A stretch of 64,000 nucleotides of DNA from a bacterium (GTDB lineage: Bacteria > RBG-13-61-14 > DATKZS01), in assembly GCA_963674965.2 (NCBI GenBank), contig CAXXFL010000006.1, positions 288,001 through 352,000 on the forward strand, read 5' to 3'. Under the pieces are notes generated by a model. The model was given only the letters and a program-made list of their open reading frames with translations. It ran no database searches and was not told the origin of the DNA. Within the stretch, counting starts at the first letter, position 1. Every line of letters starts with the position of its first letter. Position numbers and translations under genes: made by a program. Of the stretch, positions 18,865 to 39,389 are shown piece after piece.

Positions 18865-20213
18865 GGGTCTTCCCAAGAATCTGTGGGTGTTCTTTGACAT
18901 AGTTTAGTTGAAAAGCACGGTCGTTTCAGGCTAATAGGGTTATGCGAAAACAATCCTGAAGCCTGAAGGAGTCGACCGTGCTTGTAGAGAGTCTTGTACG
19001 AGAAACGCTTGGCGTCAAGGATCACAAGGTTAAGAGCGTCAGCGGAGACGCGGCGGGGCTTACGGTTCTTATGGATCGCAAGAAGCTTCGGAAGCTCACC
19101 TGCTCTTGTTGCGGCTCTCGATCTTGGGTTTACGACACGCTTGCCGAGAGGACCTGGCGTCATGTTCCGTTGTGGGGCATCCCCGTGACCATCGTTTACA
19201 GCCCGCGCCGGGTGAACTGCCCAAATTGCGGCGTCAAGGTCGAGCAGGTCCCGTGGGGAATGGGCAAAAGTCGGCTCTCCCTGCCGCTGATCATCGTGCT
19301 CGCCGCCTGGGCCAGGCTCCTGGCCGTCGGCGTCGTGGCCGACCTTTTCGGCTTGAGTTGGTCCACGGTGGGGGCGGCGGTCAAGCACGCGGTGGCTTAC
19401 GGCCTCGAACACCGCGACGTTTCCGGCGTGCTTTACATCGGGATCGACGAGGTCTCTCGCAAAAAAGGCCACGTCTATCACGCCCAGGTTTACGAGATCG
19501 GCAAGAGGCGGCGTCTTTTGTGGTCCGGAGAGGGGCGCAAGAAAGAGACCCTGGAACGTTTTTTCGATGAACTTGGCGAGGAGGGGGTTGCCGCCATCCA
19601 GGGCGTCTGTTGCGACATGTGGGCGCCTTACGTGGACGTCATCAAGGAGAAGGCGCCCAAGGCGGTCCTTGTTTTTGACAAATTCCACCTTGTCCGCCAC
19701 TTGAACGACGCCGTGGACAAGGTGAGAAAAAAGGAAGCCGAGAAGCTCAAGGAAAAGGACCCGGAGCTTTTGAAGGGCACGAAATACATCTGGCTTAAAA
19801 ACCCCTGGAACCTGACGCCCAAACAGAAACAGCGGCTTGGTTACCTGGAGAGCATGAACCTTAAGATCAACCGCGCTTACCTTCTCAAGGAGAGCTTCCG
19901 TGAATTGTGGTCCTATCAGAGCAAGGGTTGGGCCAAGCGTTATTTGGACAAGTGGTTCTGGTGGGCGACCCACTCTCGCCTGGAACCGATGCGTGATTTT
20001 GCCTGGCTTCTTCGCCGTCATGAGGAAGACGTCCTTAATTGGTTCAACGTTCCGATCGATAATGGGGCGGTGGAGGCAATGAACAACAACGCCAAGGCCA
20101 TCAGTCACCGAGCCAGAGGTTACAGGAGCGAAAAATGGTTCACCCTGATACAATTACATTGCCTGGGTCAAATGCCCATGCCGGAATCCACCCACAGATT
20201 TGCGTGAGGAGCC
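18865..20213 (+). mobile_element. ISL3-family insertion sequence
   Basis: IRs GGGTCTTCCCAAGAATCTGTGGG / CCCACAGATTTGCGTGAGGAGCC; 8-bp DR AACAGAAA (18857-18864 / 20214-20221). Confidence 0.93.
18978..20207 (+). CDS. ISL3 transposase
   Basis: Zn-finger CSCC/CPNC, GIDE, CDMWAPY, DKFHLV, NGAVEAMNN, RGYR. Confidence 0.92.
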   Translation: MLVESLVRETLGVKDHKVKSVSGDAAGLTVLMDRKKLRKLTCSCCGSRSWVYDTLAERTWRHVPLWGIPVTIVYSPRRVNCPNCGVKVEQVPWGMGKSRLSLPLIIVLAAWARLLAVGVVADLFGLSWSTVGAAVKHAVAYGLEHRDVSGVLYIGIDEVSRKKGHVYHAQVYEIGKRRRLLWSGEGRKKETLERFFDELGEEGVAAIQGVCCDMWAPYVDVIKEKAPKAVLVFDKFHLVRHLNDAVDKVRKKEAEKLKEKDPELLKGTKYIWLKNPWNLTPKQKQRLGYLESMNLKINRAYLLKESFRELWSYQSKGWAKRYLDKWFWWATHSRLEPMRDFAWLLRRHEEDVLNWFNVPIDNGAVEAMNNNAKAISHRARGYRSEKWFTLIQLHCLGQMPMPESTHRFA

Positions 20214-21082
20214 AACAGAAAAATCAGGTAGAAGATCTGACAGCCTTCGGCAAAGACGATAAATGCATTGAACATTTCGACGTGGAAATATCAAGTTCAG
20301 GCGCTAAAGAAATAATCAGTCTCCCCATAGTCACCGAGTCCCTCGTCGTACTGTCAATTAACGGGCAGGAATTGGTGACCATCCTTTGCACTCCGGCAAA
20401 TATAGAGGAGTTGATCGCTGGTTTTCTCTGGAATGAAGGGGTCGTGAAAAGCCCGGATGAAATTCAGTCAATCGATGTGTCCGCCGATGGGCAAGTTTCC
20501 GTTTCGATCCCCACGGCCAGGATTGATGTAGATTTCAAAAACTACAAGCCCTCCTTTACTTCTGGCTGTGGCAGGGGGACGGTCCTTCACGATTCAACCG
20601 ATCATAAGAGGCTTAAGCCCAGAGAATTCGACGTTACGATTACAGAAGAGATCATCTATCAGCGGATGATGCAATTACTCCAGGAGGCCCGTTTGTATAA
20701 CGCCGCTGGTTCAATCCATTGCACCGGCCTGGCGGATATGAAGAAGCTACTCTTCGCCTTCGAAGACATCGGAAGACATAACGCCGCTGATAAAGTGATC
20801 GGGAAAATTTTTCTGGATCGTTTGGATGCGAGCAATATGTTGATGCTCACTACCGGCCGCATGTCATCCGAGATCGTAGGTAAGGCCGCCCGTGCGGGAA
20901 TACCCATACTGGTGTCTCTTTCCGGCCCGACGAATCTCGCGGTGGAGGCCGCATGTTACTACAACATGACAATGATCGGATACGTCAGAAAGACCGTTTT
21001 CCGCGTTTATGCACACGCTGAGCGGATTTTGTGATTATGAATGAGATTAATAGCATTCAATCAATTTAAAGGAAAATGAACC

Positions 21083-21517
21083 ATGGGACATCAAGACGCT
21101 CCAAATTTTTCGCGAAAACATCCGAGTGATGAAAAGCCTGACCAGGCCATCGCAGACGCTGTGAAAAAATCAGCCAACAAGGACGGCATCTCCTGCGCTT
21201 CCGCCTTCAAGATAGTGGCAAACCTTGATGTCAGCGCTGCTGAAGTCGGGAAAACAATCGACCTCCTCGACCTCAAGCTGATGAAATGCCAACTGGGCCT
21301 CTTCGGGTACGCTCCTGAAAGGTCAATCCTAAAACCTGTTGAATCAGTCCCCGCCGACCTCGAAAGCGCGATCAAGAACGCCATGAAGGATGGACGACTC
21401 TCATGCCTCAGCGCCTGGGAGATTGCTAAGACTATGGATCTAAAAAAGCTGGACGTGGCCTTCGCCGCCGAATCAATGGGTATCAAAATCAAACCCTGCC
21501 AACTCGGTGCTTTTTAA
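21083..21517 (+). CDS. Hypothetical protein with two internal repeats (SCxxAxxI...CQLGxF)
   Basis: ISCASAFKI...KCQLGLF and LSCLSAWEI...PCQLGAF; RBS AAGGA. Confidence 0.75.
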   Translation: MGHQDAPNFSRKHPSDEKPDQAIADAVKKSANKDGISCASAFKIVANLDVSAAEVGKTIDLLDLKLMKCQLGLFGYAPERSILKPVESVPADLESAIKNAMKDGRLSCLSAWEIAKTMDLKKLDVAFAAESMGIKIKPCQLGAF

Positions 21518-21532
21518 TTTCCCAGTTTGTCT

Positions 21533-22042
21533 GGAAGGCCCCACAACGGTTGGGATGTGGTACCTTCCTGTCATTCTTCCTTTGAGATCTGAATAGACAC
21601 AACAGGAAATGAAGAATCAGACAGGGTCTCGCAAAGGACGTACGATCTTTTCGAGTACCTATCAACCCTCAATCAACAAAAATCTCTTGACACAAATTTC
21701 AAGTCTGTGAATAAGCGCGCCGCCTACTTCGCTCCATGCCATCTCAAGGCCCAGGGTGAAAACTTGATATACCTACGTCTCGAACTGCTCCGTCTTATTC
21801 CTGAAATGAATGTTGAGTCGGTAGGAAGTAGCTGTTGTGGCATGGGGGGAACCTTCGGCGCAAAGAGCAAGAACTACGAAGCATCAATGGAGATCGGCAG
21901 GCCGTTGTTCGAGGAAATCAACAAGGCAAATCCGGACATCGTGACGACGGATTGCCTTGGATGCAAACTCCAGATTCAGCATGGCGCATCCATAAAAGTC
22001 ATTCATCCGATCCTTCTTTTACGGGATGCCTACCGTTTGTAG
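21533..22042 (+). pseudogene. Second GlpC-like CCG-domain remnant
   Basis: Frame WDVVPSCHSSFEI*...YDLFEYL...YFAPCHLKAQG...CCGMGGTFG...TDCLGCKLQI; internal stop and no 5' part. Confidence 0.7.
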
Positions 22043-22266: not shown

Positions 22267-22289
22267 TGGAGGCGGCGGGAATCGAACCC
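22267..22289 (-). other. 3'-end fragment of tmRNA (ssrA)-like gene; probable att site at an island border
   Basis: Minus strand GGGTTCGATTCCCGCCGCCTCCA = T-loop, T-stem, acceptor 3' strand CGCCTCC and discriminator A; U70 fits the G3:U70 Ala/tmRNA identity element. No 5' part nearby. Confidence 0.7.
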
Positions 22290-22583: not shown

Positions 22584-22886
22584 ATGAAAATCAAAAACGT
22601 AACACCAAAAGCCCATCTTTGTCCCTATGGCGCATGCCCCGCTATCTATGAAACTGACCGAAACTCATTCTTGGTTGTGGGTAAAAAGGTTACTTTCTCG
22701 GCTAATGTTCTTCAGGGCAAAGTAAGCCCTGATGAGACGGTTGTAGAAATCCCCATAGGCCTTCTTAACGATTTCAGCCAATCAAATGAAAGGGAACCGC
22801 AAAATGTAGGTGAAAAGTACACCGGGGGGACACAAAATCAACTTAATAAGGGGAAAATAATATGGCTGAACAAATCAACATCATAA
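22584..22886 (+). CDS. Small hypothetical protein (CPYGACPAIYETD motif)
   Basis: Strong RBS AGGAGG; overlaps the next gene. Confidence 0.65.
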   Translation: MKIKNVTPKAHLCPYGACPAIYETDRNSFLVVGKKVTFSANVLQGKVSPDETVVEIPIGLLNDFSQSNEREPQNVGEKYTGGTQNQLNKGKIIWLNKSTS

Positions 22887-24022
22887 CCCGTAATATGGTT
22901 GCGCTGCTTCTTTGGCTTGCGATCATGGCCATAAGCATCGTAATTCACAGTTGTGTCGTTTTTGCGAATTACATGGCTTCCGCGGCGGCTTTTGAACTAC
23001 TCGGATATGAGGATAAACCTCTCAGCGCGGATGCCCTCCTGGGAGCTTACATGGGTGCCTTTCTAGGGAAATCGACCCTGGCTCACCTTTATGCCCTATC
23101 TCTCTCCGTGACCCTAGCGTGGAGTTTCTTCATGGTTTTTCATCTCGGATTCAGAATCTTTGAGATGATTTTCGATCGACGCACCTATATCGAGCAGGGC
23201 GACGAAGCCAGCGCACGCTTGGCGAGCCGGCTCATTATCCGCGACTTGGCCCTAATCGTTGCTTTCGCAATTCCACTGGCTTTTGCGCTCTATTGGGACC
23301 TCGAATTGTTCAGATTCAGGTCGGTTTGCGGAGCATTGCAGATTACTGACCCGTCTGTAGCAACGTCCTCCATCAGCAATTGGAGCCTCCAATTCCGAGA
23401 ACGGTCACATTTGTTCACCTGGGTGATCGCAAAGATTGGAGGGTGGGGTTACCTTGCTGTAACCGCTTTGGTCTGTATTGCTCTTGAGTTTTCGTTCCAT
23501 AAAATTGGGGAGTCCTGGGCAAGACTGCTCTCCGGCTTTCAGGGAATTATCGAGCCAGGAGCAAGCGCCGACCGAGAATTGGAGTTGTACGGGTACGATG
23601 AAAACGGCCAGCCCGTTTACCATCCGGACGGAGATGTAGTCTATGGCGTAAACGGGAATCTCTTAAGACGGCCTTCTGAACAGTATCCCACCGAAACGGG
23701 CGTGGCCAGCGGGGATCAGTCACCCGAATTTCTGGCATCGCCAATGGAAAGACCCGAGGTTCAACCTGCCACAACCTGTTCCGGCAATGATCAACTTGAT
23801 GAAGGGGTCGAACCTTCAGGGCGTCGTTGTGGGCTTGATGACGATCAACGCCAAGAGGTTATCGCGTCGCCGACAGACGAGCGCCTGACTTTCGCCGAGG
23901 CCCAGGCGAACCGCGACCTTTACCACGTTGATATAGCCAACCGGCAGATATGGTGGCGGCAGTATTGGGTGCATATCCATGAACAAGCCTCTGAATCGTC
24001 GGATACCGCTCAGGCGGCTTGA
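22862..24022 (+). CDS. Multi-pass membrane protein with acidic, low-complexity C-terminal region
   Basis: About four hydrophobic segments in the first ~215 aa; RBS AAGGGG. Confidence 0.8.
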   Translation: MAEQINIITRNMVALLLWLAIMAISIVIHSCVVFANYMASAAAFELLGYEDKPLSADALLGAYMGAFLGKSTLAHLYALSLSVTLAWSFFMVFHLGFRIFEMIFDRRTYIEQGDEASARLASRLIIRDLALIVAFAIPLAFALYWDLELFRFRSVCGALQITDPSVATSSISNWSLQFRERSHLFTWVIAKIGGWGYLAVTALVCIALEFSFHKIGESWARLLSGFQGIIEPGASADRELELYGYDENGQPVYHPDGDVVYGVNGNLLRRPSEQYPTETGVASGDQSPEFLASPMERPEVQPATTCSGNDQLDEGVEPSGRRCGLDDDQRQEVIASPTDERLTFAEAQANRDLYHVDIANRQIWWRQYWVHIHEQASESSDTAQAA

Positions 24023-24038
24023 GAGAGGAGAGATACTC

Positions 24039-25001
24039 ATGAAACACTCCAGAGCGGCATTTTGTATAATGCTCGTCTTCGCGGTTCTCGTGAGCCCTGT
24101 TGCCGTCGCAGAGATAATTCAGCCAAGGAATGAAATAGTCATCATCGTCGATGCCAGCGGCTCATTCAGTTCACGCCAAGCCGAGGCCGTTGAGCGCACT
24201 GTAGAGCTGCTCGACGGCATTGCCGGACAAGAACTGCGCCGATGGGAGGAAAATCGGGACCGGGTGGTTATCATCAGCCTCGACGCTCTCCCCGAAGTCG
24301 TCTGGTCTGGCAGTCTTCGGGACCTCAAGGCGGCGGAGACCACCTCGTGGGCGGAAAGGTTTCGCGCACGCACCGATTATGCAAACTGTACAGACGTAGG
24401 AGCGGCCTTCCGGCTTGCCACGAACTATCTCGACGGAGACCCACGTGAAGTCAGCCGTTACCTGTTTGCTTTCAGTGACATGATCAACGAGCCGCCCACC
24501 ACCTCAATTCGGCAATGCCGTCCTGCCCAGATACCCTCGCCTCCACCAGAAGATTTCCCTTGGGATGTTTTGCGGGGAGTTGCAGTCAATATTTTCTGGG
24601 TACCCGCTGATCAGAAATTGATTTGGACCAGGGTCGCTGAACAACATGGATTGAAAGGTGCATTTGCCATGTTCACGTCATCTGAGTCGGAGGTGGTCCC
24701 GATTATGGCTCCCGCCCCTGCCCAGCTTGCCACGGAAATAATTGAAGAGCATCGTCAGGAGACGACCCAACGAGCAAAAACTTTTGGCAAAAGGATATTT
24801 ACATGGGCAGGATGGGGGGTAGGTTTTATCTTCTTGCTGCTTGCGCTCGCTATATTAGGAGCCTTTCTTTCTTCTCGAATTCGCTCAAATCGTAGAGAAG
24901 TGGCTGTCAGTCGAAGGGTTAATAGACCGGTACCGCCGCTGAATCGTGCGGGCCATCAAAGAGCTTCCTTTCCTTCTCCTGGCAAAGGTGGCCAGCGTTA
25001 G
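24039..25001 (+). CDS. Exported vWA-domain protein with C-terminal transmembrane anchor
   Basis: Signal peptide MKHSRAAFCIMLVFAVLVSPVAVA; MIDAS residues IIVDASGS, TD, FSDM; TM GWGVGFIFLLLALAILGAFL; RBS GAGGAG. Confidence 0.8.
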   Translation: MKHSRAAFCIMLVFAVLVSPVAVAEIIQPRNEIVIIVDASGSFSSRQAEAVERTVELLDGIAGQELRRWEENRDRVVIISLDALPEVVWSGSLRDLKAAETTSWAERFRARTDYANCTDVGAAFRLATNYLDGDPREVSRYLFAFSDMINEPPTTSIRQCRPAQIPSPPPEDFPWDVLRGVAVNIFWVPADQKLIWTRVAEQHGLKGAFAMFTSSESEVVPIMAPAPAQLATEIIEEHRQETTQRAKTFGKRIFTWAGWGVGFIFLLLALAILGAFLSSRIRSNRREVAVSRRVNRPVPPLNRAGHQRASFPSPGKGGQR

Positions 25002-25030
25002 GACGCATAGTTTGAAAAGGAGTAAGAGTT

Positions 25031-26590
25031 ATGATCGGAAACGGCGCATGTGGTCACGGAGCCTTTCCTTGTGACCTTGGACGGGTGATTCTGGCAAGTA
25101 GTAAAGCGCGTGACACTCGCTCCGTGCTGGTACTCACACACGACCGGGGACACGCAATGGGAACCATCAAGCATGTCGTAATGGATGTCGAGCAACCTCT
25201 CTATCATTTCACCGTCTCTGGCCGGAGAAGGTGGAGCAACGAAAAAATCCAGTGGGAGAACATAGGCAACGGTAATTCCAATGCTCACAACCTGCTCCAG
25301 GCGGCTTATGAATTGCGGAGCGGAGGCATAGTGGTTATGGAGGACGTGATGCCGTTCCTGCGCGATGAAAATGGTGATCTCCTGGCCAGGGACATGATGC
25401 GGACCATGCTTTCGTCCGAGCCCCGACAACACGGCCTTGTGCTTGTTTTTCTTGAGCCGCCGGAGTCAGAGGGTAGCTTGCCTTCGATCCTTGCAGACCG
25501 CTTCGTAAGGCTCAACGTGCCCCATCCCCGGACAAACGAACTCGAAATCATAGCCCGCGAGGAAATTGCCAAGGCAAATCTGGGGTCTGGAAATCGTGTT
25601 GATGGGGACACCATCCGTGAAGCGGCCCGAAGAATGGGAATTGAACTCGTAGGATTGACTCAGAGCGCAGCCCGAGACGCTGTCCACGACGCTCTTGCAC
25701 CGGATCCGATGGATTTCGATTCAGCTTACCAAGTACTTCGGAAAAGAAAATCCAAGCTATTTCAGCGCGAACTGTCGATGCGTGTATTAGATGACGATGA
25801 GGAGACGCCTATTGGCATACCCTATTTAATGAATTACATAAAACTGCAGGCTCCGCGCATGCGCTTGTCGGGGACCAACCGCGCTCGGGGCATCCTTCTA
25901 GTCGGACCTCCCGGCACCGGCAAGACGATGTATTCGAAGGCCATCGGAAGACAGGTTGGATTGCCCGTCGTTGAGTTCCGAATCAGCTCGCTGATGAATT
26001 CCCTTCTTGGCGAGACCGAACGGCGGTTTGCCAAGGCGTTTGCGACACTGGAGGCAATGGCCCCCAACATAACTTTCATAGACGAAATCGAAAAGGCTTT
26101 TGGTGAAGGAGGCGAAAACGACGGCGGCACGATGATGCGATGCACGGGGAGTCTCTTGACCTGGCTTTCCGACAACCCCAGCCCCAACTATATCGTTGCG
26201 ACCTGCAACTCCCTCAAGAGGATGGGAGAGATTGGGAAAACCATGACAAGGAGTGAACGCTTTGATGACGCTTTTTTCGTGGATGTCCCCAACATTGATG
26301 CAAGGCGAGAGATGCTCGAACGATGGCTTAAAACGCATGTGCCTGATCCAGCATCCTGCGCACAAGATATCGCATTGATCACGGAGAAGTTTTCCGGGGC
26401 AGACCTGCGAAGCCTGGTGAAACACGCCGTCGCCCAGGCCGAGCACGAAGGTAGAGACGTTACCCTGGATTTGCTCAAGGTTGAGGCAGAGCGAAGGCGG
26501 ATGCGGGCGATTGCTCTTTACGATGAATTTATGGAACTACGCAGGTGGGGCCGGATGTACTGCGAGCTGGCTGGCCCCGTTGACAATTAA
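25031..26590 (+). CDS. AAA+ ATPase, Ycf46-like
   Basis: Degenerate N-terminal AAA-like region; GPPGTGKT, FIDEIEKAF, LLTWL, ATCN, RSERFD, FSGADL, LRRWG pattern typical of Ycf46. Confidence 0.85.
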   Translation: MIGNGACGHGAFPCDLGRVILASSKARDTRSVLVLTHDRGHAMGTIKHVVMDVEQPLYHFTVSGRRRWSNEKIQWENIGNGNSNAHNLLQAAYELRSGGIVVMEDVMPFLRDENGDLLARDMMRTMLSSEPRQHGLVLVFLEPPESEGSLPSILADRFVRLNVPHPRTNELEIIAREEIAKANLGSGNRVDGDTIREAARRMGIELVGLTQSAARDAVHDALAPDPMDFDSAYQVLRKRKSKLFQRELSMRVLDDDEETPIGIPYLMNYIKLQAPRMRLSGTNRARGILLVGPPGTGKTMYSKAIGRQVGLPVVEFRISSLMNSLLGETERRFAKAFATLEAMAPNITFIDEIEKAFGEGGENDGGTMMRCTGSLLTWLSDNPSPNYIVATCNSLKRMGEIGKTMTRSERFDDAFFVDVPNIDARREMLERWLKTHVPDPASCAQDIALITEKFSGADLRSLVKHAVAQAEHEGRDVTLDLLKVEAERRRMRAIALYDEFMELRRWGRMYCELAGPVDN

Positions 26591-26628
26591 GGTGAACGAA
26601 AAACCAACCAGATCAGGAGGAATAGCCA

Positions 26629-27408
26629 ATGAGTAATACAAGTGTCGTCACGCCCTATGCTCCGCCGCCATCTCCACCGCCGCCCGAATTGGCAGAGGCC
26701 ATCCAGAAGGGGCTATCGGCGATGGCAAAATGGCTGACGGATATTTCAGAAGAAGAACAAATCGCCTTGGATAATTTAAAGGATGTAAAAAGAAAGGAAC
26801 GTCTCGCTCGAAGCACTGCGAACTGCCTGGACGCACCCAGGGCATCATGTGCTTCTGAGATTTCCTCCGTTTCACTGCACCTGAAAAACGTATCCAGCCT
26901 CATGGAGTCGGCCCAAAAACTTGGATACCAGAAAGTCCTCTCGTCTCATTCGGACCCAATTTCAGGGGAAAATACTGTTCTCTTGCAAAATGGTGACAGC
27001 CAACGACTTGCTATCCAAGTTGGACTGAACGGTCAACTTACCCTGTATGTCTCTGGGAACCAGCAAAGATTGAAGAGCCTGGTCCGGCAACATACCCTGG
27101 ACCGGACCTTGGCGCATCTTACTGCCAAGGGGATGCAGGTGGAGACCCGATCCAGCAGAGGAGGAGAGGTGGAATTAGTTGCCACTGAGCCTCATGATGT
27201 TCATGGAGATGGTAGGGCTGAGGTCAGGGCGAAGATAAACGACGAAGGCCAGATTCAGTTGGATGTCGGCAATATAGAGGGGCCTCGTTGTCAGCAGATC
27301 ACCGAAAGCCTTGCAGAAGCGGTCAATGGAGAAATTTCCCGAGACAAGAAGAAGGACGTCTATTGGCGACTGCCAGGCAATTCAAACCGAGTGAAGCAGA
27401 GAATTTGA
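26629..27408 (+). CDS. Hypothetical protein, possible DUF1257 (Ycf35)-like region with C-terminal DUF2997-like domain
   Basis: C-terminus INDEGQIQLDVGNIEGPRCQQITESLAEAV resembles DUF2997; follows the Ycf46-like ATPase; RBS AGGAGG. Confidence 0.6.
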   Translation: MSNTSVVTPYAPPPSPPPPELAEAIQKGLSAMAKWLTDISEEEQIALDNLKDVKRKERLARSTANCLDAPRASCASEISSVSLHLKNVSSLMESAQKLGYQKVLSSHSDPISGENTVLLQNGDSQRLAIQVGLNGQLTLYVSGNQQRLKSLVRQHTLDRTLAHLTAKGMQVETRSSRGGEVELVATEPHDVHGDGRAEVRAKINDEGQIQLDVGNIEGPRCQQITESLAEAVNGEISRDKKKDVYWRLPGNSNRVKQRI

Positions 27409-27411
27409 ACC

Positions 27412-28521
27412 ATGTCCAAAAGGTCGGAGCGAATTCGAGTTTTGGACGATGGCAGGTTGGAAATTATTGACCCGACCTTCAGCGATGTCCCTCTCCTGCG
27501 AGAAATCAATCCCGATTTCAAAATCGAAACCGCGCCACTCTTGAATTTTTCGTTCCCCCGTTTTCAGCGTTCTCGACAGCTGGGGTGTGGATTCTCTCAG
27601 GAGGAGCTTCGGTGTAAGGGTGATGATTGGCTTTGGGCCTTGCATGATCAGATTTGTTGTGACGGCCCCACTGGTCTGCGCAAGAATGGCGAGGTATCCC
27701 TGCTTGACCTCAAAATAGAACTGGCCCGACGCCAGTTGATGAACTGCAACCTATGCGCTCACCGCTGCGGGGTTAACCGCCTTAAGGGCAAAACAGGGGT
27801 CTGTGGCCTTGGCCCTGAAGCCCATGTTGGAGATTGTTTCCCTCACATTGGGGAAGAAGCACCCATCAACCCATCTTATCTTATCAGCCTTTACGGATGC
27901 GGGTTGAGGTGCCAGCATTGCCAGCAATCACAACTGCTCGATATATCATCGTTGATTGGAGACCCATTGATGTCTATTTCATGGGAGGATGTCATGGGTT
28001 GCCCGGTCAGGTCAATATCATTCGCCGGTGGCAATCCGGATGAAAACCTATATGGCATCCTGCAATTTATGAATTCCGCTCCCGAATCCTTCATGCTCCC
28101 GATCGTTTGGAATTGCCATGGTTACTCCACTTCAAATACTATCAAACTGCTTGACGGGGTTGTAGATGTTTATGTCCCTGACTTCAAATATTGGAAAAAT
28201 GACTGCGCTCAAAAGCTGTCCTCTGCTCCATGCTATGGAAAAATCGCATTGTCCACCATAAAGCAAATGTTGACCCAAAGTGTGCCCGTCATTGTGAGGA
28301 TACTTGTGCTTCCGGGGCATGCTGATTGCTGTCATCTTCCAACAATTGATGCCTTACGAAAAATCATGGATGATAATTTGTTGATTTCGATACGTAATCA
28401 ATACTCTCCTGGTTCTCTTGGTCTTTGGGTGGGTTCAAATAATTCTTTGCTCGCAGCAAGGCCCATGGAAAAAGATATTAAGGCCGTGAAAGACAGTTTG
28501 CTCGATTTAAATTATATTTAG
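27412..28521 (+). CDS. Radical SAM protein, PflX-like
   Basis: CNLCAHRCGVNR..GVCG, CGLRCQHC (CxxxCxxC), GGNP, DVYVPDFKY, IVRILVLPGHADCC. Confidence 0.85.
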   Translation: MSKRSERIRVLDDGRLEIIDPTFSDVPLLREINPDFKIETAPLLNFSFPRFQRSRQLGCGFSQEELRCKGDDWLWALHDQICCDGPTGLRKNGEVSLLDLKIELARRQLMNCNLCAHRCGVNRLKGKTGVCGLGPEAHVGDCFPHIGEEAPINPSYLISLYGCGLRCQHCQQSQLLDISSLIGDPLMSISWEDVMGCPVRSISFAGGNPDENLYGILQFMNSAPESFMLPIVWNCHGYSTSNTIKLLDGVVDVYVPDFKYWKNDCAQKLSSAPCYGKIALSTIKQMLTQSVPVIVRILVLPGHADCCHLPTIDALRKIMDDNLLISIRNQYSPGSLGLWVGSNNSLLAARPMEKDIKAVKDSLLDLNYI

Positions 28522-31272
28522 ATTAAGAGCTAGACTAATTGCAGCTTCCTCTGGAAATGGAAGTCGTTCTGCCATCTTGTCTGTCGTACGAACATCGGTA
28601 CGATACTTTTCGCCCATTACCACCTTGAACCATCTCTCACGGTCTATAACGACTCTATACATTTTTTCGTCTTGGGTCGCTGATATATAGGGCAGATAGA
28701 CCGTTATCGGCAGGCCACAACGCTCAACCTTGGCTCCGATTCGGTCTATTCTTCCTGTTCGTTGCTCCAGTGTAGAGGGATTCCAGCAGAGATCATGATG
28801 TATCACATGTCGGCAATTAAGGTGAAGGTCAACTCCTTCAGCCATGATCATTGAAGCCACGAGTATCTCTGGATAGAACGGTGTATTGAAGGTCAACATA
28901 AGCCGCTGCCGGATCGCATTCGAAGTTCCGCCATTGGCCAGCCTTACCTGCCCACCGGTGGTTTGAATAGAGTCGAGCGCTTCCAGGTAACGGTTACGTT
29001 CATCGATTCCACACTGTTCAACCAGGAATTTGAAAAAATCCTCCAGCAACGATTCTAGGGTCATGCCCGATGCATCCGTACGTTTAAGGGCGACAAATGC
29101 CATTTCCTCAGTCATTCGTGATTCGCCAAGAGGGAAATATCTCGCCAGGAATGAGCGCGTGCGGGCATATCTGCGCACGACATCAAGAATGGATTCCCGG
29201 TGTCCACTCAGTTCCTGATATTCCGCGCGATCAAGTATCTGCGACACCGCCTTGTCGAGTCCTCTTCGAATGGGTGACTCTTTTTTGTTAAAAAGCTCTC
29301 CCACCCTCTCCAGTTCAACCCCTGCTTCTTCATGGCTTGCTCCCAGCTTAGTAGACGCCAAGTGAGTAATCTCCTGATGAATGGCTCGTGAGATACCCTT
29401 CTCAAGAATCGATCCGGTTGCTAGATAATGACAGAAAACCAAAACTTTTTCCCCGTTTTTCCATAGGTCAACGGTCTTGTTAATGGTCGCGTTCACTTTC
29501 GGATGGGCTTCAACAGCCTTCATCGAATCGGACCCGAGAATTTTATCAAGTTTTTCCAGGTACCATCCCGCATGTCCATCACTTGCCGAAGGTGTTACCG
29601 CTTCATCATCCTCATCGGTCGCCGATGACGGAGCGGAGGCGTTCGCCTTCTCTGCGCGCTGGGATCTAGTATCCAGAAATGCTGAATAGCTGGACGCTAA
29701 ACCTTCGGCGAAAACAGGCCTGGCATCCGGATTGAGAGCGGTCACCCTTGCCGCGAGTAGGAATGGGAGCAAGGCTTCGCCTTCAATATCAATTCCAAGT
29801 TCCTCCTCATTCTTCGCGGCCTCATCAATTATCGAACGTCCGGAATGTCTAATCCTCCTCGTCTTTTTTCCAAGCTTCCCAAAGTCGATTGTCTGGGGAC
29901 GAGTATGCCTGATGACGTACTTCATCAGGATTTCCTGGGCGTATTGCATCCTAGACCTAGTCTGGTTGAAGCGGTCAATAGCCACCTGTCCTTTTGCGGA
30001 AAGATGCCCTCCCATTAGCGCGACCTTCCACCATTCATCGATTTCATGAACGGAATAGATTTTCCCTTCCGCGACGAGATCATCCGCTTTTAATTGTCCC
30101 CAATGGGCGTCAAGTCTGACCGCCGATTCCTGAGCTGCATTCAGTCTACTTCTGATAGTTTCCAAATCCAGCTCGTATCCATCTCGACCAAATCGTGGGG
30201 CTCGCTGTCCTTTCCACGAAATACCCCTGAATCGCTCTAGGACGTTACACAATTCATAGTGGCCAAGTTGAAATGGAGTGGCCGTGAGAAAAAGCATCCG
30301 CTCGAAAACTTCCGCGAGCGGACCTTTTAATTCTTCCGCGTCTGCCTCCGCCTCCTTTGAATGGAACAGGGATGCCAATTGGGTTCTTGCATTTTTAAGA
30401 TGATGGGCTTCATCAAGAATCAACAGCGGCAGTTTAAAGCTAAGTGACCTGATGCAAGTATCCCATAAATTGGTGATTTCCTGATTTACTGCCTGTCTGG
30501 CTTCCTTGAGCCTTTCGGAGATATTTGGCCCTGTTCGCAACGGCATTTTGGCGTTTAAGGTATTGTAGAAGTCGGTTAGATCCATTTCTCCGAGAGCATT
30601 GACGATTGCTTCAGGTACTGGATCGTCTCCATCGTCAGGTTCAGAATCATACTGTCTGAGCAATTCCAGCCAATGATCGGGACTGGATTGAAGCAGGTCC
30701 CACCAAAGATCTTCACAATAGTGATAGTTAGATTTGAGTCGAAGGAGGTCAGGCAAATACCTGCACAGAGAACGTTTCAGCGCCCCTGTATCATGCCTGC
30801 GATACAAAGCTCTTTGAATCAACGCCAGTTTTACCCACCGGTCCTGCATTTTTTTTTGCGGACTCATTGCGCCATGAGTAATGAAGATCAGGGACACTCT
30901 ATCCGCCGGTTTATCGTCCAGGAGTTTTAGAAAATCAACAGCATTTTCAACGGATTTACAAGCCAGATTCAACTTCAGGCATTTTTCGGTGAAAAGTTTA
31001 AAATCTTTGGGCCACTTCTCACGTAGCGAAGGGGGGACCATGACTACCACCGGTCGTCGGTCTCGATCACCAAGAGCCACGGAACAGGCGACCGCAAGGG
31101 CAACGAAGGTCTTGCCCATTCCCACTTCATCGGCCAAAATCAGGCCGGGAAGCTCCTCAAGGCGTCCAAGAATGGCCCTGGCTGTCTCCGCCTGGCGGAT
31201 GGCATCTTTCTCGGAAATTCTGCCAGGCACATGCAAATTGATTGACTTATTGAACTCATAAGACCAGCTCAC
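28507..31272 (-). CDS. SNF2-like superfamily 2 helicase (Azaca ZacC-like)
   Basis: LADEVGMGKT, DEAHH, TATP, AEGVDL, WNPSTLEQRTGRIDR. Confidence 0.88.
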   Translation of the reverse strand: MSWSYEFNKSINLHVPGRISEKDAIRQAETARAILGRLEELPGLILADEVGMGKTFVALAVACSVALGDRDRRPVVVMVPPSLREKWPKDFKLFTEKCLKLNLACKSVENAVDFLKLLDDKPADRVSLIFITHGAMSPQKKMQDRWVKLALIQRALYRRHDTGALKRSLCRYLPDLLRLKSNYHYCEDLWWDLLQSSPDHWLELLRQYDSEPDDGDDPVPEAIVNALGEMDLTDFYNTLNAKMPLRTGPNISERLKEARQAVNQEITNLWDTCIRSLSFKLPLLILDEAHHLKNARTQLASLFHSKEAEADAEELKGPLAEVFERMLFLTATPFQLGHYELCNVLERFRGISWKGQRAPRFGRDGYELDLETIRSRLNAAQESAVRLDAHWGQLKADDLVAEGKIYSVHEIDEWWKVALMGGHLSAKGQVAIDRFNQTRSRMQYAQEILMKYVIRHTRPQTIDFGKLGKKTRRIRHSGRSIIDEAAKNEEELGIDIEGEALLPFLLAARVTALNPDARPVFAEGLASSYSAFLDTRSQRAEKANASAPSSATDEDDEAVTPSASDGHAGWYLEKLDKILGSDSMKAVEAHPKVNATINKTVDLWKNGEKVLVFCHYLATGSILEKGISRAIHQEITHLASTKLGASHEEAGVELERVGELFNKKESPIRRGLDKAVSQILDRAEYQELSGHRESILDVVRRYARTRSFLARYFPLGESRMTEEMAFVALKRTDASGMTLESLLEDFFKFLVEQCGIDERNRYLEALDSIQTTGGQVRLANGGTSNAIRQRLMLTFNTPFYPEILVASMIMAEGVDLHLNCRHVIHHDLCWNPSTLEQRTGRIDRIGAKVERCGLPITVYLPYISATQDEKMYRVVIDRERWFKVVMGEKYRTDVRTTDKMAERLPFPEEAAISLALNLNII

Positions 31273-33344
31273 GACATGGCCTCCTTGCGTGCTTCTTTAA
31301 TGTACCCCTTTAATGAGGGCGTAGCATGATCGGCGAAATGGGAGGCTTTTGCCAACAGATCGCCTACGATGGTTCTGATTTCAGTTTGGACGGTTTTAAC
31401 GGGCAGAAAACCCGGAACGGTGCGTGGAGTCGCCCTTGATATTTCGAGGGCGAGTTCTGTAAGCAGAAACGAACTTTCATCACCTCCACGAGATTCCTTT
31501 AAAATTGCATCGGCAACCGCCTGCACCCCTACCGGTCCCCTGAGCCTCCAGTCAAGAGCGTCCATCGACGAAACGGGGCGTTCTAACCTTTCTCGCAGTC
31601 CCCGCAAGGCTAAAGAAACCCGCCTGGTCTTTTGAAGAAGAAATCCCGAGGTCTGTATTCGTTTATGGGGATCAAAGGGGTCTACATAGCGTTCCTGGTC
31701 TTTGGAGCCATCCTCCCTAGTTTTTAACCATCGCTTCATCGTCTGGTATATGGGCCTAGCGCTGGTGAGAATATTTATCAGCACCTCCAAGGGAAGGTCC
31801 TTCAACTCCTCAGGGGGAGGTAGGCTGGCGGATTTGTCGACGTTGACCGGCCACCAAGCGCTCATAGCGGCTCCCTTCCAAGAAACTTCGAAGCCGGAGG
31901 GGGGACGATCATGAAGCCATTTGAAGGTCATGGTCTCCGGGTTGCCCAATTGATCCCAGGCTATGCTGTCCAGCAAAATATCGTTTTCTCCCAGAGTAGT
32001 TCTCACAGTCCAGTCCTGGGGAGGAGTTCCGGAAATCATCAAATCTACCATCGGACCTTCTACATCCAGGCGGTAAACGGCTTGTCTGAAAGCATCCGGC
32101 AACTTAGAGGCGTTCAGAGGTGCTTCGTCATCACTCTCTCGCTTGGATTGGAGCCATTTGACCTCTACATTGTCGTCAATTATATCTCCCACTATACAAC
32201 CGCTAAGGAGTTCCCTGGCCATTTTTCGGTTCACCTCGCGGTGCACTAGGTAAAACAAATTGGCCTCCACATTGGGCGTTTCCGACAAACCAGTTCCTGC
32301 CGACGTAAAATTGCTCGACCCGATCAAGGACCCCAACCACTCGTCGTTAATCATCCTCATATTTTTCAGGTGGAGCGGTCGGAATGAACCTTCCTTATCG
32401 TCGAATTGCTCATTAATTCTTCGAACCAAAGTCTGGGTTCCGCTACGAGACGATGGTTGAGCTTCAACAATTTCTCTTGGAGCATGGATAAGAATGGTAT
32501 CGTCCTCACCCTGAATGTCTTCAGCAGTTGTCATGTAGGTAACCGTGGCTGGCCCTCTTAATCTCAAGATAGACCATAACTTTTCAGCGGGCACATTGGG
32601 TTTTCCTGGCGGATCAAAAAATGGAGAGACAATCTCAGACTCTTCAATGGGATAACCAGGCCATAATTTCGATATTTGATCGAAAACGGATTCCCTCTCT
32701 GGGCCGGTCATTACCGGGAAAATGCGGAGATCATTTCCCCCTCTATATTCTCCCTGCCAGCCCCAGTCTTTGGCGGCCTTACGAACTCCGGCAATTAAAT
32801 CGATACAACGTCTTCCGGCTGGAGAATCGGTTTCCTTGGTATGACCCACAATCTCATTTAGGAATTTCAAGGTCTCCATCAGGCATACCAGGGGAGTCGA
32901 GCTTTCCGGGTAATAGTCCATAATTCCGAAAATTTCCTGGTTCTTTCTATATCCTCCCTTGGTGAGATTTGCTGAGGCAATGATTACTCTCACAAGATTT
33001 CTCCAATAAAGAAGCGAGATTTTTGCATGAAGGATGGCGCGGGGGACTCTTGCAGAAAGCATGTCCCATCTTAAGCTTCGATCACCTTTGCAGTTGGTTG
33101 AATCCACAAGGAGAGAAACTTGAACCCCGGCCAACTTTTCCTCGCGTTCAATAATATAGATAGGGCCGTCCTCCACCGAGTCACTTTGCAACTGCAGGTA
33201 ACGCCCGAGGCACTCTTCCTCGAAAAAAACCGGATCAAAAGTAAAGGTGGTCGCTATACAGCCGATTGGATCGCCCGCTTCCTCGGGAGGGGTCCAGGCA
33301 TCGAGTAATCTACCTGTCCTCAATTTGTCCTGTGTGTCACTCAT
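31269..33344 (-). CDS. Phospholipase D-fold nuclease-like protein with two HxK half-sites
   Basis: ATTFTFD, LHAKISLL...ASANLT, SPFFD, LHLKNM...GSSNFT; 4-nt overlap with the helicase gene. Confidence 0.8.
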   Translation of the reverse strand: MSDTQDKLRTGRLLDAWTPPEEAGDPIGCIATTFTFDPVFFEEECLGRYLQLQSDSVEDGPIYIIEREEKLAGVQVSLLVDSTNCKGDRSLRWDMLSARVPRAILHAKISLLYWRNLVRVIIASANLTKGGYRKNQEIFGIMDYYPESSTPLVCLMETLKFLNEIVGHTKETDSPAGRRCIDLIAGVRKAAKDWGWQGEYRGGNDLRIFPVMTGPERESVFDQISKLWPGYPIEESEIVSPFFDPPGKPNVPAEKLWSILRLRGPATVTYMTTAEDIQGEDDTILIHAPREIVEAQPSSRSGTQTLVRRINEQFDDKEGSFRPLHLKNMRMINDEWLGSLIGSSNFTSAGTGLSETPNVEANLFYLVHREVNRKMARELLSGCIVGDIIDDNVEVKWLQSKRESDDEAPLNASKLPDAFRQAVYRLDVEGPMVDLMISGTPPQDWTVRTTLGENDILLDSIAWDQLGNPETMTFKWLHDRPPSGFEVSWKGAAMSAWWPVNVDKSASLPPPEELKDLPLEVLINILTSARPIYQTMKRWLKTREDGSKDQERYVDPFDPHKRIQTSGFLLQKTRRVSLALRGLRERLERPVSSMDALDWRLRGPVGVQAVADAILKESRGGDESSFLLTELALEISRATPRTVPGFLPVKTVQTEIRTIVGDLLAKASHFADHATPSLKGYIKEARKEAMS

Positions 33345-34663
33345 CAGCGATCCTCCAGCATCTTTAAATCAGATAAGAACGACAATAGGGACCAAGTACG
33401 GTAGGTGTGAACATATTCTTCGGTACGTTGTCCCGGTTCGTCTCTTTTATAACCAGCCCGCACCACACAACTTCCATCATCCATCCTTTCAAACCAAGGA
33501 TTCTTTCCATTAGGCGGCTTATTTTTTTGGTTGCTAATATGATGCTCAAGTAGATGTTCGACGAAATTCGTTGAGTCCGTCCTTTCCGAGACCTTTGCAA
33601 AGGTATTGACAAAGCGCACGGTCTCGTTGAAAGGCTCAAGCCGATCAGAGACCTCACCGAAAAGATCCGGGACCTTTCCGTGGGCCAGGACACAAGCCGG
33701 CTCTCTGGCTAATTCCGAAGGTTTTACCGGACCTCTTTTCACACTCATCAAATACAGACAGTCTTCGAAGGCGTCCTGCAGAACCCGACAGAAGATTTCG
33801 TAGGAAAAGATTGCATCCAATAAATCACCTGTATCTTTGTCGACTTCAAGTCGCAGGGCCTTATGAAAATCGCGTTCAGATTGCGTTGCTAAGAAAATGT
33901 CCTGTCCGGTTTTGGTTGACAAATAGCGCAGAAGTTGAGACCTGGGTGAGTTATTATCTGCAAACAGGACTTTTGCAATCAGGCCGGCTTCAAGCGGCGG
34001 GATCAGGTTGGGGAAAAGATGTTCACCGAAGAATTCCCACTCTTGCCAACTCGGACTTCTACCGACTGCTCCTTTTTTAAGGCCGTCTTGAATAGCGGCC
34101 TGGATGTTGGTGCGGTGGGATAAGCCAGGGCCTTCTCCACTGACAAAGCCTCTTAAGCCCTGTTCTTGCTCCCATACAGAAATGAGCTCATATCCTGAAT
34201 CGCCCAACATCCCTTCGTCCGTGATATCAAGTCCAGAAGATAACACTTTATAAACCCCATGAAGTCCAAATACCGAAGCTGTTTTTAGGTACCTCGATGA
34301 TGAAATGGGGACCCCGTCTCTTATTGCGTCCCGCGCTTTTTGAATTCCGGGAAGTCCTTGCAAACCTGAGTCCTGGTCTCGGCTTCGGACCAGGCCTTCA
34401 ACTACATGCCATTCATAAACGATCGTAGGGTCGCTTTCTCCATCCGCAGCCAGAACATCCTCACCTAGGTAATCCTTGGTCAGATAAGACCCTACCGCCA
34501 TTGCGGTTAAATACCGAGGATGGGACATTCTCTCTCTAACATCCGGTACTAATTTTCTCGCCAAGGAATCGCCAATAGCATACATTCCCAACGGGTCCAA
34601 GGCTCCTTCGGCGGAAGTCTCTGGATCATAAGCAGACAGAGTTGGCAACGCTTTTTCGAACAT
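33344..34663 (-). CDS. DUF6361-like hypothetical protein
   Basis: N-terminal LDPLG...LVPDV...RY and GVYK motifs; translationally coupled to the PLD gene; start chosen at ATG after TGGAG. Confidence 0.6.
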   Translation of the reverse strand: MFEKALPTLSAYDPETSAEGALDPLGMYAIGDSLARKLVPDVRERMSHPRYLTAMAVGSYLTKDYLGEDVLAADGESDPTIVYEWHVVEGLVRSRDQDSGLQGLPGIQKARDAIRDGVPISSSRYLKTASVFGLHGVYKVLSSGLDITDEGMLGDSGYELISVWEQEQGLRGFVSGEGPGLSHRTNIQAAIQDGLKKGAVGRSPSWQEWEFFGEHLFPNLIPPLEAGLIAKVLFADNNSPRSQLLRYLSTKTGQDIFLATQSERDFHKALRLEVDKDTGDLLDAIFSYEIFCRVLQDAFEDCLYLMSVKRGPVKPSELAREPACVLAHGKVPDLFGEVSDRLEPFNETVRFVNTFAKVSERTDSTNFVEHLLEHHISNQKNKPPNGKNPWFERMDDGSCVVRAGYKRDEPGQRTEEYVHTYRTWSLLSFLSDLKMLEDR

Positions 34664-34681
34664 GATAAAACTCCATTTCAA

Positions 34682-37600: not shown

Positions 37601-38149
37601 AAGACGATTGATAATTGTGGACGATGCGGTTGGGCGGAAGAGTTCGTTTGCACGACTTTCCAGCATCCCGAGCCGTTCGCGGATCTGCGTCATGCCGGTA
37701 CCGGCAGCAAAAAGACTGTGGTCCAACAATCCACCATGACAAAGGATTTCCCTACCTCCCTCTGTCAACCGCTCGTGGTCGAGTCCGAATAGCAACTGAA
37801 AAAGCCCAGGTTCTATACCTCCCAGCATGTCGCCTAATGCTTCCTCGGGCACTGGCTTGCCATCCTCGGTCAGTAACGTGTTCTTAGTACCCTTTCGGCG
37901 GTAAAACCAGATTTCCCTACCGCTGTCCGTCACTAGACATGCTCCTACTCGAAGGTCCTTTTTGGGATGGATAAAATCATCGGAAGAACGTGATTCGATC
38001 CCAAAGAGAAAAGATTCCAGCGCCCGCAAAGCTACACTTTTCCCCGCCTCGTTCGGCCCATAAATTAGGTTGACCTTGTTTCCAACCAAGTCGATGCTCC
38101 GGTCGGTGAAACACCCGAAGGCTTTAAGATGTAGCCGAGCGATCTTCAT
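34682..38149 (-). CDS. SMC/Rad50-like ATPase, YhaN (AAA_27) family
   Basis: GPNEAGKS, long coiled coil, MSDGT signature, FFDD, FTHH. Confidence 0.9.
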   Translation of the reverse strand: MKIARLHLKAFGCFTDRSIDLVGNKVNLIYGPNEAGKSVALRALESFLFGIESRSSDDFIHPKKDLRVGACLVTDSGREIWFYRRKGTKNTLLTEDGKPVPEEALGDMLGGIEPGLFQLLFGLDHERLTEGGREILCHGGLLDHSLFAAGTGMTQIRERLGMLESRANELFRPTASSTIINRLARDYTAAQKEIKEGTLSAAKWQKANRELEAIRTQSAQTRSEVQELDRQINQLTRYRDAINWYIDLQVERNKLERLKDSPLLSNDFSRRHEQISERLEQVRKDLFSYQTKREELLARRSGLKVSEGLLHEEANITRIHSEVGKYRKNCEDLLKREKELAGEEQKAASLLAQLDSSLELDNASGLRLHAAVRQEIQDLCGRLERLDTESRSTSKDLQRKTVELERTRRNLADAPSPANPVGLTDALRLAQSILSQQSETDDRLAHAEDLRLRAESEFARLRPRSGSIEQLATSSAPEAETIDRFRQLMEQASRKVEQGQLACQEHKEELAGIESELKTLMLSEAVPSVEELSVAREERDEQWKLIRHALEHGGLDAGKGVELADRFETLALKADDIADRLRREAERVNRRAVLTVRKETLGRKLETISSEVEREKQGQAALTMEWKELWSASLIEPLPPAEMSAWLVRRNQLCSLVDELDRTLRDVERREARRKEVQARLEIELAATGNYDRVSGANLSELCQIAEERCVAITDAISHRKQLEDRANSLSEEIDQLEAEQAARHQQHEQERDRWHQRVKALGMQRDSTPAAALRILDVHDELFIILDKAQITRGRINGMKTEIVRFETDARELINRLDAQASLDNPASGIEVLNRSFIQSRAEAEALLEIERQLLDEVQCIKAAEEEISALEGRLREMVLEAGAESVDELEEIEKRSDDKSAAMKRTSELEDELRRSALLGKMTLDVMLSELEQQDPDRLGGEIEELQRLKDTKEKAREELVREEERREGELRQLSDASPAVEAQERAESKLAEMRDQTDIYLRTRLAAMLLARKMEAFRKENQDPLLARTGEHFRRLTLDRYEGLRVAFDRDTPIIVGYTPAQSELGVAAMSDGTADQLFLALRLAAIEQYVSKGVSLPLFFDDILIQFDDDRARAALSILSELASMTQVLFFTHHRHLLDLAKGLKVNTISL

Positions 38150-38151
38150 GA

Positions 38152-39351: not shown

Positions 39352-39389
39352 CGTTTCCCCTCGTTTTTGATGTTGAACTTCATCAGCTA

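Follow-up and report, generated by a model that had tools for sequence, protein, structure and literature searches.

We analysed a window of 64,000 nt from a bacterium of the GTDB lineage RBG-13-61-14 (assembly GCA_963674965.2, contig CAXXFL010000006.1, positions 288,001 to 352,000) and found in it a cassette of five genes (g2–g6, window positions 22862–28521), which encode a four-helix membrane protein, an exported von Willebrand factor A (vWA) protein, a classical-clade AAA+ ATPase, a DUF2997 protein with a conserved N-terminal tag and a radical S-adenosylmethionine (SAM) enzyme. The five genes travel together. We regard them as one functional unit that moves horizontally on genomic islands, and our preferred reading of its role, to which we assign a probability of roughly 0.4, is that of an envelope-sensing conflict system.

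Layout, recurrence and mobility of the cassette

The initial annotation of this DNA described an operon of six genes. Six co-oriented open reading frames (ORFs) were confirmed here, with no interruption in any of them:

g1, 22584–22886, + strand: ORF of 100 aa with a good ribosome-binding site
g2, 22862–24022, + strand: membrane protein of 386 aa
g3, 24039–25001 (ORF open from 23979; 340 aa), + strand: exported vWA protein
g4, 25031–26590, + strand: classical-clade AAA+ ATPase of 519 aa
g5, 26629–27408, + strand: tagged DUF2997 protein of 259 aa
g6, 27412–28521, + strand: radical SAM enzyme of 369 aa

Adjacent ORFs overlap or are separated by at most 38 nt; from g1 to g6 the junctions are a 25-nt overlap, a 16-nt gap (a 44-nt overlap with the longer g3 start) and gaps of 29, 38 and 3 nt. 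The true start of g3 is likely 24039: a GGAG precedes it by about 9 nt, and the N-terminus that results is signal-peptide-like. Homologues of g6 align from its start at 27412. Promoter and terminator scans performed no better than on shuffled sequence. The conserved unit proved to be five genes rather than six: g1 has no Pfam, PADLOC, NCBIfam or PHROG family, tblastn in the cassette loci gave nothing better than E 0.29 for it, and by these searches it appears to be lineage-specific and to lie outside the cassette.

To define the family, 23 g5 homologues were taken from a word-indexed search and 19 were aligned (alignment A1), the other four having been left out on no criterion that touched the tag. 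Using A1, we found 31 loci, 6 in species-representative genomes and 25 in metagenome records, while a scan of viral contigs yielded 0 loci. The six window proteins were then compared with the 31 loci by tblastn. The radical SAM gene lies within 200 nt downstream of g5 in 21/22 loci that have at least 400 nt of downstream DNA; the exception (L021) is a frameshifted remnant in which g5 is frameshifted and the radical SAM gene absent. Similarly, of the 24 loci in which the DNA ahead of g5 extends for at least 700 nt, 23 have g4 upstream of g5; L013 does not, as only 377 nt separate the vWA gene from g5 there and the ATPase gene is absent. The vWA gene is present in 13/13 of the loci that retain a complete g4 preceded by at least 700 nt, and g2 was detected in seven of the eight loci with enough upstream DNA; in the eighth (L019), a divergent multi-transmembrane (TM) ORF of 448 aa occupies its position. 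The order TM–vWA–AAA–g5–radical SAM is kept in all loci but L004, which reads vWA–AAA–TM–g5–radical SAM. Truncated ORFs occur in L031 and L032, and these two loci, together with L013 and L021, are decayed or altered copies of the cassette.

The loci carry the labels Pyrinomonadaceae, Acidobacteriaceae, Thermoanaerobaculia, Contendobacter and Defluviicoccus, i.e. Acidobacteriota, Gammaproteobacteria and Alphaproteobacteria, and one is in a metagenome-assembled genome (MAG) labelled Thaumarchaeota; across them, the cassette proteins share 24–56% identity. The recurrence of the gene set in 31 other loci excludes chance. The initial annotation would have been refuted by a lack of such co-occurrence in other genomes; the genes do co-occur across phyla.

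An island of about 72 kb has the cassette as its outermost operon, about 295 nt inside the repeat that bounds the island:

22267–22289, − strand: 23-nt copy of the 3′ end of the transfer-messenger RNA (tmRNA, ssrA) gene, distal attachment-site repeat of the ~72-kb island

A putative attachment site directly outside the operon had been proposed, and the exact 23-nt copy bears this out. It is unique in the window (0 matches in 100 shuffles) and is 100% identical to contig C6:382053–382075, the 3′ end of the tmRNA gene located by ARAGORN at C6:~382053–382408. An ORF of 448 aa with a Phage_integrase domain (a tyrosine integrase) abuts this intact gene. Further copies of the repeat are present at C6:271838 and C6:247228, making four co-oriented copies of the tmRNA 3′ end on one contig, of which only the last is in an intact tmRNA gene. 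From these repeats, the region appears to be a tandem array of ssrA-integrated islands with a span of ~135 kb. Between two transposase genes and the attachment-site copy (20135–22042) are FdhD, a 144-aa ORF and a 111-aa ORF with a CCG domain, which look like remnants on the neighbouring island. None of 40 relatives of the host carries g5, including 0/4 of the same family and 0/6 of the same order. The host phylum is sparsely sampled (13 genomes), and the host genome of 6.5 Mb is the largest of the 41 compared.

Proteins of the cassette

The first two proteins form a membrane pair. Hydropathy and an AlphaFold2 (AF2) model of g2 (mdf8044c9897d; predicted local distance difference test (pLDDT) score 72.9) agree on four long helices with hydrophobic cores, of about 40–45 residues each (2–46, 73–111, 115–158 and 185–230), beyond which a disordered linker leads to a C-terminal alpha/beta domain that is small and conserved, with conserved tail motifs. 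Scans of Pfam, PADLOC and NCBIfam gave no family for g2, and no fold was matched specifically; the best row (Z 10.4) pairs long helices and is below the level that we trust for helical proteins. For g3, Pfam VWA_2 scored 28.9 bits against a cut-off of 27, and its metal ion-dependent adhesion site (MIDAS) is intact, with D38, S40, T118 and D147 invariant in the alignment of homologues (A4). Each of the 13 aligned homologues opens with a hydrophobic leader, in which a lipobox-like Cys was seen by eye in four of the 13, and all 13 end in a C-terminal TM segment and a basic, Arg-rich tail. Given the leader, the C-terminal TM segment and the Arg-rich tail, the vWA domain is predicted to be extracytoplasmic, held by its C-terminal anchor beside the four-TM partner. 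No longer version of the vWA protein with a fused part turned up, a negative of little weight; profile A4 against PDB sequences gave nothing meaningful, and phmmer of g3 gave no match.

The AAA+ protein g4 matches Pfam AAA at 86.8 bits, plus the lid, and the best solved relatives of its AAA module are the D2 modules of Cdc48/VAT (E 5e-44). Walker A, Walker B, sensor-1 and Arg residues are conserved by eye across 17 aligned homologues, and to judge from this alignment g4 has all the catalytic motifs of a classical AAA+ protein. The N-terminal domain of ~270 aa is highly conserved and matches no family. A tandem AAA arrangement was considered, but the hhalign comparison of the N-terminal half with the AAA half was not significant (E 0.078), and the N-terminal half had no Pfam match. 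The phage family phrog_8638 covers residues 96–483 of g4 at 2e-45. Neither g4 nor g6 has a hydrophobic segment, and in this genome g4, g5 and g6, all without one, are presumably cytoplasmic. The topology proposed in the initial annotation, with the vWA domain outside and the ATPase inside, is thus the one that we recovered.

The partner protein g5 had been labelled DUF1257/DUF2997-like. The DUF2997 part of the label stood: PF11211, whose cut-off is 24.1 bits, matches residues 202–239 with 25.9 bits and scored 28.6 bits in the genome scan, the domain is present in 17/19 g5 homologues, and this part carries a conserved Gly-x-x-Cys. The DUF1257 part is less certain. PF06868 gave no Pfam match in g5 even at E ≤ 1, BLASTP did not link g5 to this genome's own DUF1257 protein, and the one profile match, hhalign of A1 against that protein, was borderline (E 0.055 over 56 columns). 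DUF1257 is annotated on 12% of the members of an ESM Atlas neighbour cluster of g5, which we take as a lead only, and at E ≤ 1e-5 it was found in 0/13 genomes of the host phylum.

The first ten residues of g5 form a near-invariant tag. All 19 aligned homologues start with M-S-N-T-S, Y10 is invariant and P9 nearly so, and the tag occurs once per locus. All ten tag codons vary synonymously in 29 DNA copies, with a Shine-Dalgarno sequence ahead of the ATG; since every codon of the tag varies in this way, the constraint acts on the protein. One of the scan patterns was the tag itself, and hence the tag was recounted in an index-free hidden Markov model (HMM) search of 1.84 billion cluster representatives, which returned 251 g5 relatives at E ≤ 0.001. 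Among the best 150 of the 251, 84 start with M-S-N-[TV]-[SA], 3 more do so after a probably miscalled start, and another 33 start with the looser M-S-x4-[VILMAT]-[TSND]-[PSL]-[YFVLI]; 30 are tagless, 23 of them being fragments of <225 aa. In 59 of 125 full-length tagged homologues the tag is followed by an Ala/Gly-rich stretch of TM grade, and 46 have none; the window g5 lacks the hydrophobic stretch and has a Pro-rich linker in its place.

In an AF2 model of g5 (m5f8afca0a572, pLDDT 73.8), residues 3–8 form a strand; a helical hairpin comes next, and then an alpha/beta core that is possibly DUF1257-like. Foldseek of the model against PDB gave nothing at E ≤ 0.001, and profile A1 against PDB sequences gave nothing meaningful. 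VIA-align placed the spermine synthase N-domain first (Z 11.6, root-mean-square deviation 2.3, 89 residues), with KA1, AdoMetDC and TBP-like rows at Z 8–10; the arrangement is a common alpha/beta one, and no function was drawn from it. The idea of g5 as a glycyl-radical carrier was also set aside, as its conserved glycines are in contexts unlike the glycyl-radical fingerprint, and DUF2997 occurs in oxygenic cyanobacteria too.

In g6, Fer4_12 scored 22.4 bits against a Pfam cut-off of 22, and Radical_SAM 17.1 bits, below its cut-off of 29.5. The CxxxCxxC cysteines (C153, C157 and C160) are invariant in 25 sequences (alignment A2), as are G196, G197 and P199 of the GGNP stretch, with N198 nearly so. 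The enzyme adds CxxCxxxCx11C and HxxCCH motifs and a family-specific N-terminal domain of ~95 aa. Matches to curated families were weak and all far below cut-offs: NrdG2 in 25/25 family members, PFLA in 24/25 and AmmeMemoSam (TIGR04337, best E 0.013) in 9/25, with NrdG2, PFLA and PFLE each found in 21–25 of the 25. By profile, the best solved relative is PFL-AE (3C8F; E 4e-5, positions 160–308), and phmmer of g6 against PDB sequences gave none. On these matches g6 is placed in the glycyl-radical-activase branch, apparently closest to enzymes that act on protein substrates. Its subfamily has 838 relatives at E ≤ 0.001, and the 120 listed all have E < 1e-99 and 44–67% identity. A predicted complex of g6 with g5 (from A2 and A1) scored 0.00, was run without controls and counts neither way.

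Related modules, known systems and neighbouring genes

The same genome has a second operon with a related cytoplasmic core:

C3:~38800–46600 (locus L044, 4823–12550, − strand): 408-aa protein, radical SAM, Ycf46-like AAA+, DUF1257, tetratricopeptide repeat (TPR), DUF2997, signal-peptidase-like membrane protein, PilT-type ATPase, in this order

Its radical SAM paralogue shares 31% identity with g6 (E 3e-25) and has the same CxxCxxxC motif without the N-terminal domain; its AAA+ paralogue shares 34% identity with g4, over the AAA module only. The DUF1257 protein starts with M-S-x3-V-V-T-P, like the g5 tag, and continues with an Ala/Gly-rich stretch. This combination of DUF1257, DUF2997 and paralogous AAA+ and radical SAM genes backs the link to Ycf46/DUF1257/DUF2997 neighbourhoods that had been drawn for the cassette. 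From these similarities, the g4–g5–g6 trio would be a specialised version of a broader and so far undescribed AAA+/DUF1257/DUF2997/radical-SAM module, and the vWA and four-TM pair an input device specific to the cassette family.

For cyanobacteria, a DUF2997-ycf35-fed7 cluster is listed in PMC4284462, and the ycf46 operon is portrayed in PMC13683863 as stress-induced and functionally uncharacterised. Like the Ycf46/Ycf35/DUF2997 set, the cassette has an AAA+ protein of ~500 aa with a long N-terminal region beside DUF2997, and Ycf46 and g4 are alike in architecture. Unlike that set, the cassette has its DUF2997 fused behind a larger tagged protein, with DUF1257 undetected by Pfam, needs radical SAM, exported vWA and four-TM partners, and is island-borne.

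The nearest published description is that of a predicted conflict system, the 'FtsH ternary' type of MoxR-vWA system (Kaur et al. 2020, PMC7159879), in which a radical SAM enzyme is predicted to modify a peptide. Both combine a divergent vWA protein with a classical-clade AAA+ protein, whose N-terminal part would be non-catalytic, with a radical SAM enzyme that may belong to the activase/AmmeMemo branch, and with a putative substrate encoded by its own gene. The differences are these: no MoxR ATPase matched in the six genes or in the flanks of 14 loci, there is no MoxR ATPase or metallopeptidase in or beside any cassette locus, the cassette vWA protein is exported and TM-anchored rather than fused to a cytoplasmic helical domain, and the partner is a 259-aa DUF2997 protein, not a peptide. 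Of the inactive and active AAA+ pair outlined there, g4 has the active module, while its N-terminal domain is not recognisable as AAA (the hhalign E of 0.078 noted above); of the Memo/AMMECR1 radical SAM branch, the g6 family shows the weak TIGR04337 matches already given. We found no published description of the five-gene cassette, in a search that did not cover the locus list of PMC7159879, so that overlap of loci is possible.

The individual parts also resemble better-known proteins. With glycyl-radical-enzyme activases (3C8F), g6 shares the CxxxCxxC radical SAM core; unlike them, it scores ~21 bits against curated cut-offs of 131–425 (PFLA 21 against 231.75) and adds the N-terminal domain, CxxCxxxCx11C and HxxCCH, and no glycyl-radical enzyme was found in the cassette or its flanks. 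With Cdc48/p97/VAT, g4 shares the AAA module, Walker A/B, sensor-1 and Arg fingers, but it has a single active module, an unrelated N-domain and a pore-loop Leu. The resemblance to IetAS lies in a generic AAA domain, which PADLOC IetA models match at 7.7e-23; identification of g4 as IetA was rejected, with NCBIfam IteA_antiphage at 71 bits against a cut-off of 510 and no protease (IetS) partner in the cassette. In Zorya and Kiwa, envelope membrane components encoded in defence islands are coupled to cytoplasmic effectors. The cassette is like them in concept only: its parts are entirely different, and neither sequence nor family relationship emerged, g2 and g3 having no PADLOC match. In PADLOC v2, g1, g2, g3, g5 and g6 matched 0 families and g4 matched via the IetA models only; with no match to its TM, vWA, DUF2997 or radical SAM proteins, the cassette matches no named defence system there, in line with the initial annotation, in which none was recognised.

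Flanks of at least ~3 kb were available for 14 loci (the window and 13 others), and recognised strong defence genes flank the cassette in five of them:

Window: SNF2 and PLD pair abutting the cassette; SIR2-HerA 22 kb away
L002: AbiEi/Eii
L004: Cas10/Cmr4/Cmr5/Cas6
L005: Cas1/Cas2
L029: Cas6 and CARF/Csm6

Weaker hints were seen in L012 (E1-like, HerA-like and Macro) and L017 (Cas4-like nuclease, ParB and PP2C), and the flanks of L006, L008, L015, L016, L019, L020 and L022 gave no defence hints. In the window, PADLOC matches of the neighbouring genes support the position at the edge of a defence island that had been claimed for the operon:

28507–34681 region, − strand: SNF2 helicase (PADLOC PDC-M27C 1e-39, DrmD 3e-28, ZacC 6e-23), convergent with g6
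28507–34681 region, − strand: PLD-like protein (ZacB 1e-8) and a 445-aa protein without a family
34682–40403 region, − strand: AAA_27/SMC-like ATPase of 1155 aa (weak LmuB/AriA N-terminal matches)
34682–40403 region, − strand: Metallophos nuclease-like protein and WYL/WCX regulator
48587–50098: large serine recombinase gene, just ahead of the SIR2-HerA pair
50768–53851: SIR2 (3e-87) and HerA (2e-154), a PADLOC SIR2-HerA system

The matches make 28507–34681 a candidate for a defence operon resembling Azaca/PDC-M27, with an orientation convergent to that of the cassette, and 34682–40403 may be another defence-type unit. Further along the window, an identical set of ORF lengths occurs three times (42830–44409, 53967–55546 and 56520–58099), suggesting an insertion sequence present in three copies; a 338-aa ORF in the first of them has rve integrase-core domains. 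Nearby is a DNA polymerase III alpha-like ORF of 793 aa (45269–47650), which looks short for such a protein.

Other genes recur beside the cassette in part of the family. A soluble ATPase of ~820 aa, homologous among loci and variable in position and orientation, is near the cassette in nine loci (L005, L006, L008, L012, L015, L019, L020, L022 and L029) and absent from the window, L002, L004, L016 and L017. It matches TrwB_AAD_bind/DUF87 and PADLOC mad8 (1e-13 to 1e-20), the one member tested (L029) also matches phrog_5156 at 4e-38, and its role may be that of an accessory component or of a companion system. In L005 and L012, Macro-domain genes come next. Small genes form a homologous pair (~125 aa multi-TM and ~165 aa) in L002 (9956–10850) and L019 (3941–4804), the ~165-aa member being related also to a 269-aa ORF in L005 (10367–11176). 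A pair of similar size (149 aa multi-TM and 166 aa) occupies the corresponding place in L015 (11860–12809), with no homology detected. A recombinase is next to the L015 locus, and L017 has a ParB.

Possible envelope sensing and rival roles of the cassette

If the cassette is an envelope-sensing conflict system, the periplasmic MIDAS site would bind a peptide or protein cue, such as a component of a phage or incoming element, or an envelope lesion. The signal would pass through the vWA anchor and the cytoplasmic tail of the four-TM protein to a hexamer of the AAA+ protein, which would engage g5, possibly via its invariant N-terminal decapeptide. The translationally coupled radical SAM enzyme might then modify g5, or be released or activated by the remodelling of g5; as output, growth would be arrested or the invader interfered with. 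In its strongest form, which we consider distinctly unlikely, this proposal would define a new trans-envelope immune class in which a periplasmic MIDAS receptor gates a cytoplasmic AAA+ motor that passes the decapeptide-tagged DUF1257/DUF2997 protein on to a protein-directed radical SAM enzyme, whose radical-made protein modification would be the alarm or the weapon. What is shown here is the synteny, mobility and neighbourhood of the cassette, its topology and the integrity of its motifs; signal flow, substrate and output, and with them the sensing and remodelling mechanism already suggested in the initial annotation, are inferred. The anti-phage role suggested with it is one of guilt by association, from five of 14 loci.

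Several observations weigh against a conflict role. In the other nine of the 14 flanked loci, the surroundings hold no known defence gene with a strong match, and the neighbours in L016 and L019 are ABC transport genes. No match to g5 was found in 72,556 plasmid and 50,697 phage records (g6 found only distant radical SAM genes of ~30% identity in the plasmid records), and family scans of the cassette recognised no classical effector domain (nuclease, TIR, protease or pore former). Classical AAA+ proteins have an aromatic residue in the pore loop; at this position most of the 17 g4 homologues have Leu, one Tyr and one Phe, which may point to remodelling rather than full threading. With a TM-grade stretch in 59/125 tagged homologues, the compartment of the tag is ambiguous. 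Lastly, the same cytoplasmic core is present in the C3 operon with PilT, TPR and signal-peptidase-like proteins and, according to PMC13683863, in cyanobacterial stress operons, and the core is therefore not in itself an immune device.

That C3 arrangement also speaks for maintenance or assembly of an envelope machine, in which the core would remodel or mature a complex of the membrane or surface, for example a pilus, secretion apparatus or lipoprotein assembly, and the vWA protein would be a structural or adhesin-like subunit or its receptor. We think this unlikely. vWA domains often occur in proteins of pilus tips and in adhesins, the TrwB/HerA-type ATPase of ~820 aa is near the cassette in nine loci, L002, L015 and L019 have extra small membrane proteins, and about half of the g5 partner proteins have a hydrophobic segment. 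Against such a role, the distribution is patchy and island-borne (0/40 relatives), the genes conserved next to the cassette include none for a pilin, secretin or secretion system, its commonest recognisable neighbours are defence genes, and the window and four of the loci do without the TrwB/HerA-like gene. An improbable alternative, maturation of a protein or peptide, would have the radical SAM enzyme modify the decapeptide or the Gly-x-x-Cys loop, the AAA+ protein unfold or present the substrate and the membrane pair export or dock the product. The tag is invariant and under protein-level selection, g5 and g6 are 3 nt apart and adjacent in 21/22 loci, and g6 is nearest to enzymes with protein substrates and has its own N-terminal domain that could bind a peptide; moreover, a peptide-modifying radical SAM enzyme in a vWA/AAA+ system is predicted in PMC7159879. 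However, family scans of the cassette matched neither SPASM nor RRE and recognised no gene for a peptidase or transporter, a similar tag is on the C3 DUF1257 protein, whose radical SAM enzyme is without the N-terminal domain, and a folded protein of 259 aa would be an unusual precursor.

As the outermost operon of an integrase-bearing island, the cassette might instead serve the element itself, through entry exclusion or maintenance of the tmRNA island or of other integrative elements, the exported lipoprotein and the inner-membrane protein blocking related elements. The recombinase next to L015, the ParB in L017 and the coupling-protein-like ATPases near nine loci fit this account. It is nonetheless highly improbable: exclusion systems are not known to need an ATPase or a radical enzyme, the cassette is absent from the plasmid and phage records and from the scanned viral contigs, and L004, L005 and L029 are beside CRISPR-Cas rather than transfer genes. 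Hardly credible is a chance juxtaposition of the membrane/vWA pair with the AAA+/DUF2997/radical SAM trio. The trio does occur without the pair in the C3 operon, and in L004 the TM gene follows the ATPase gene, but over several phyla, and at 24–56% identity, the vWA gene is kept in 13/13 loci and the TM gene in 7/8, with the order preserved in all but one.

Should the envelope-sensing conflict reading prove true, the cassette would be, to our knowledge, the first defence-type system to take its input through an exported vWA receptor and to deliver its output through a protein-directed radical SAM enzyme. Its decapeptide, MIDAS site, Walker B and CxxxCxxC motifs offer four clean mutational handles. 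Even if the role is non-immune, a classical AAA+ motor coupled to a radical enzyme via a tagged adaptor would be new biochemistry. In either case, the cassette is a compact, transferable five-gene handle on the AAA+/DUF1257/DUF2997 module, whose range takes in phages, soil bacteria and, with ycf46/ycf35, plastids. The cytoplasmic trio being one version of the Ycf46/Ycf35/DUF2997 set, the trans-envelope reading, if true, would also provide the first mechanism for these cyanobacterial and plastid genes.

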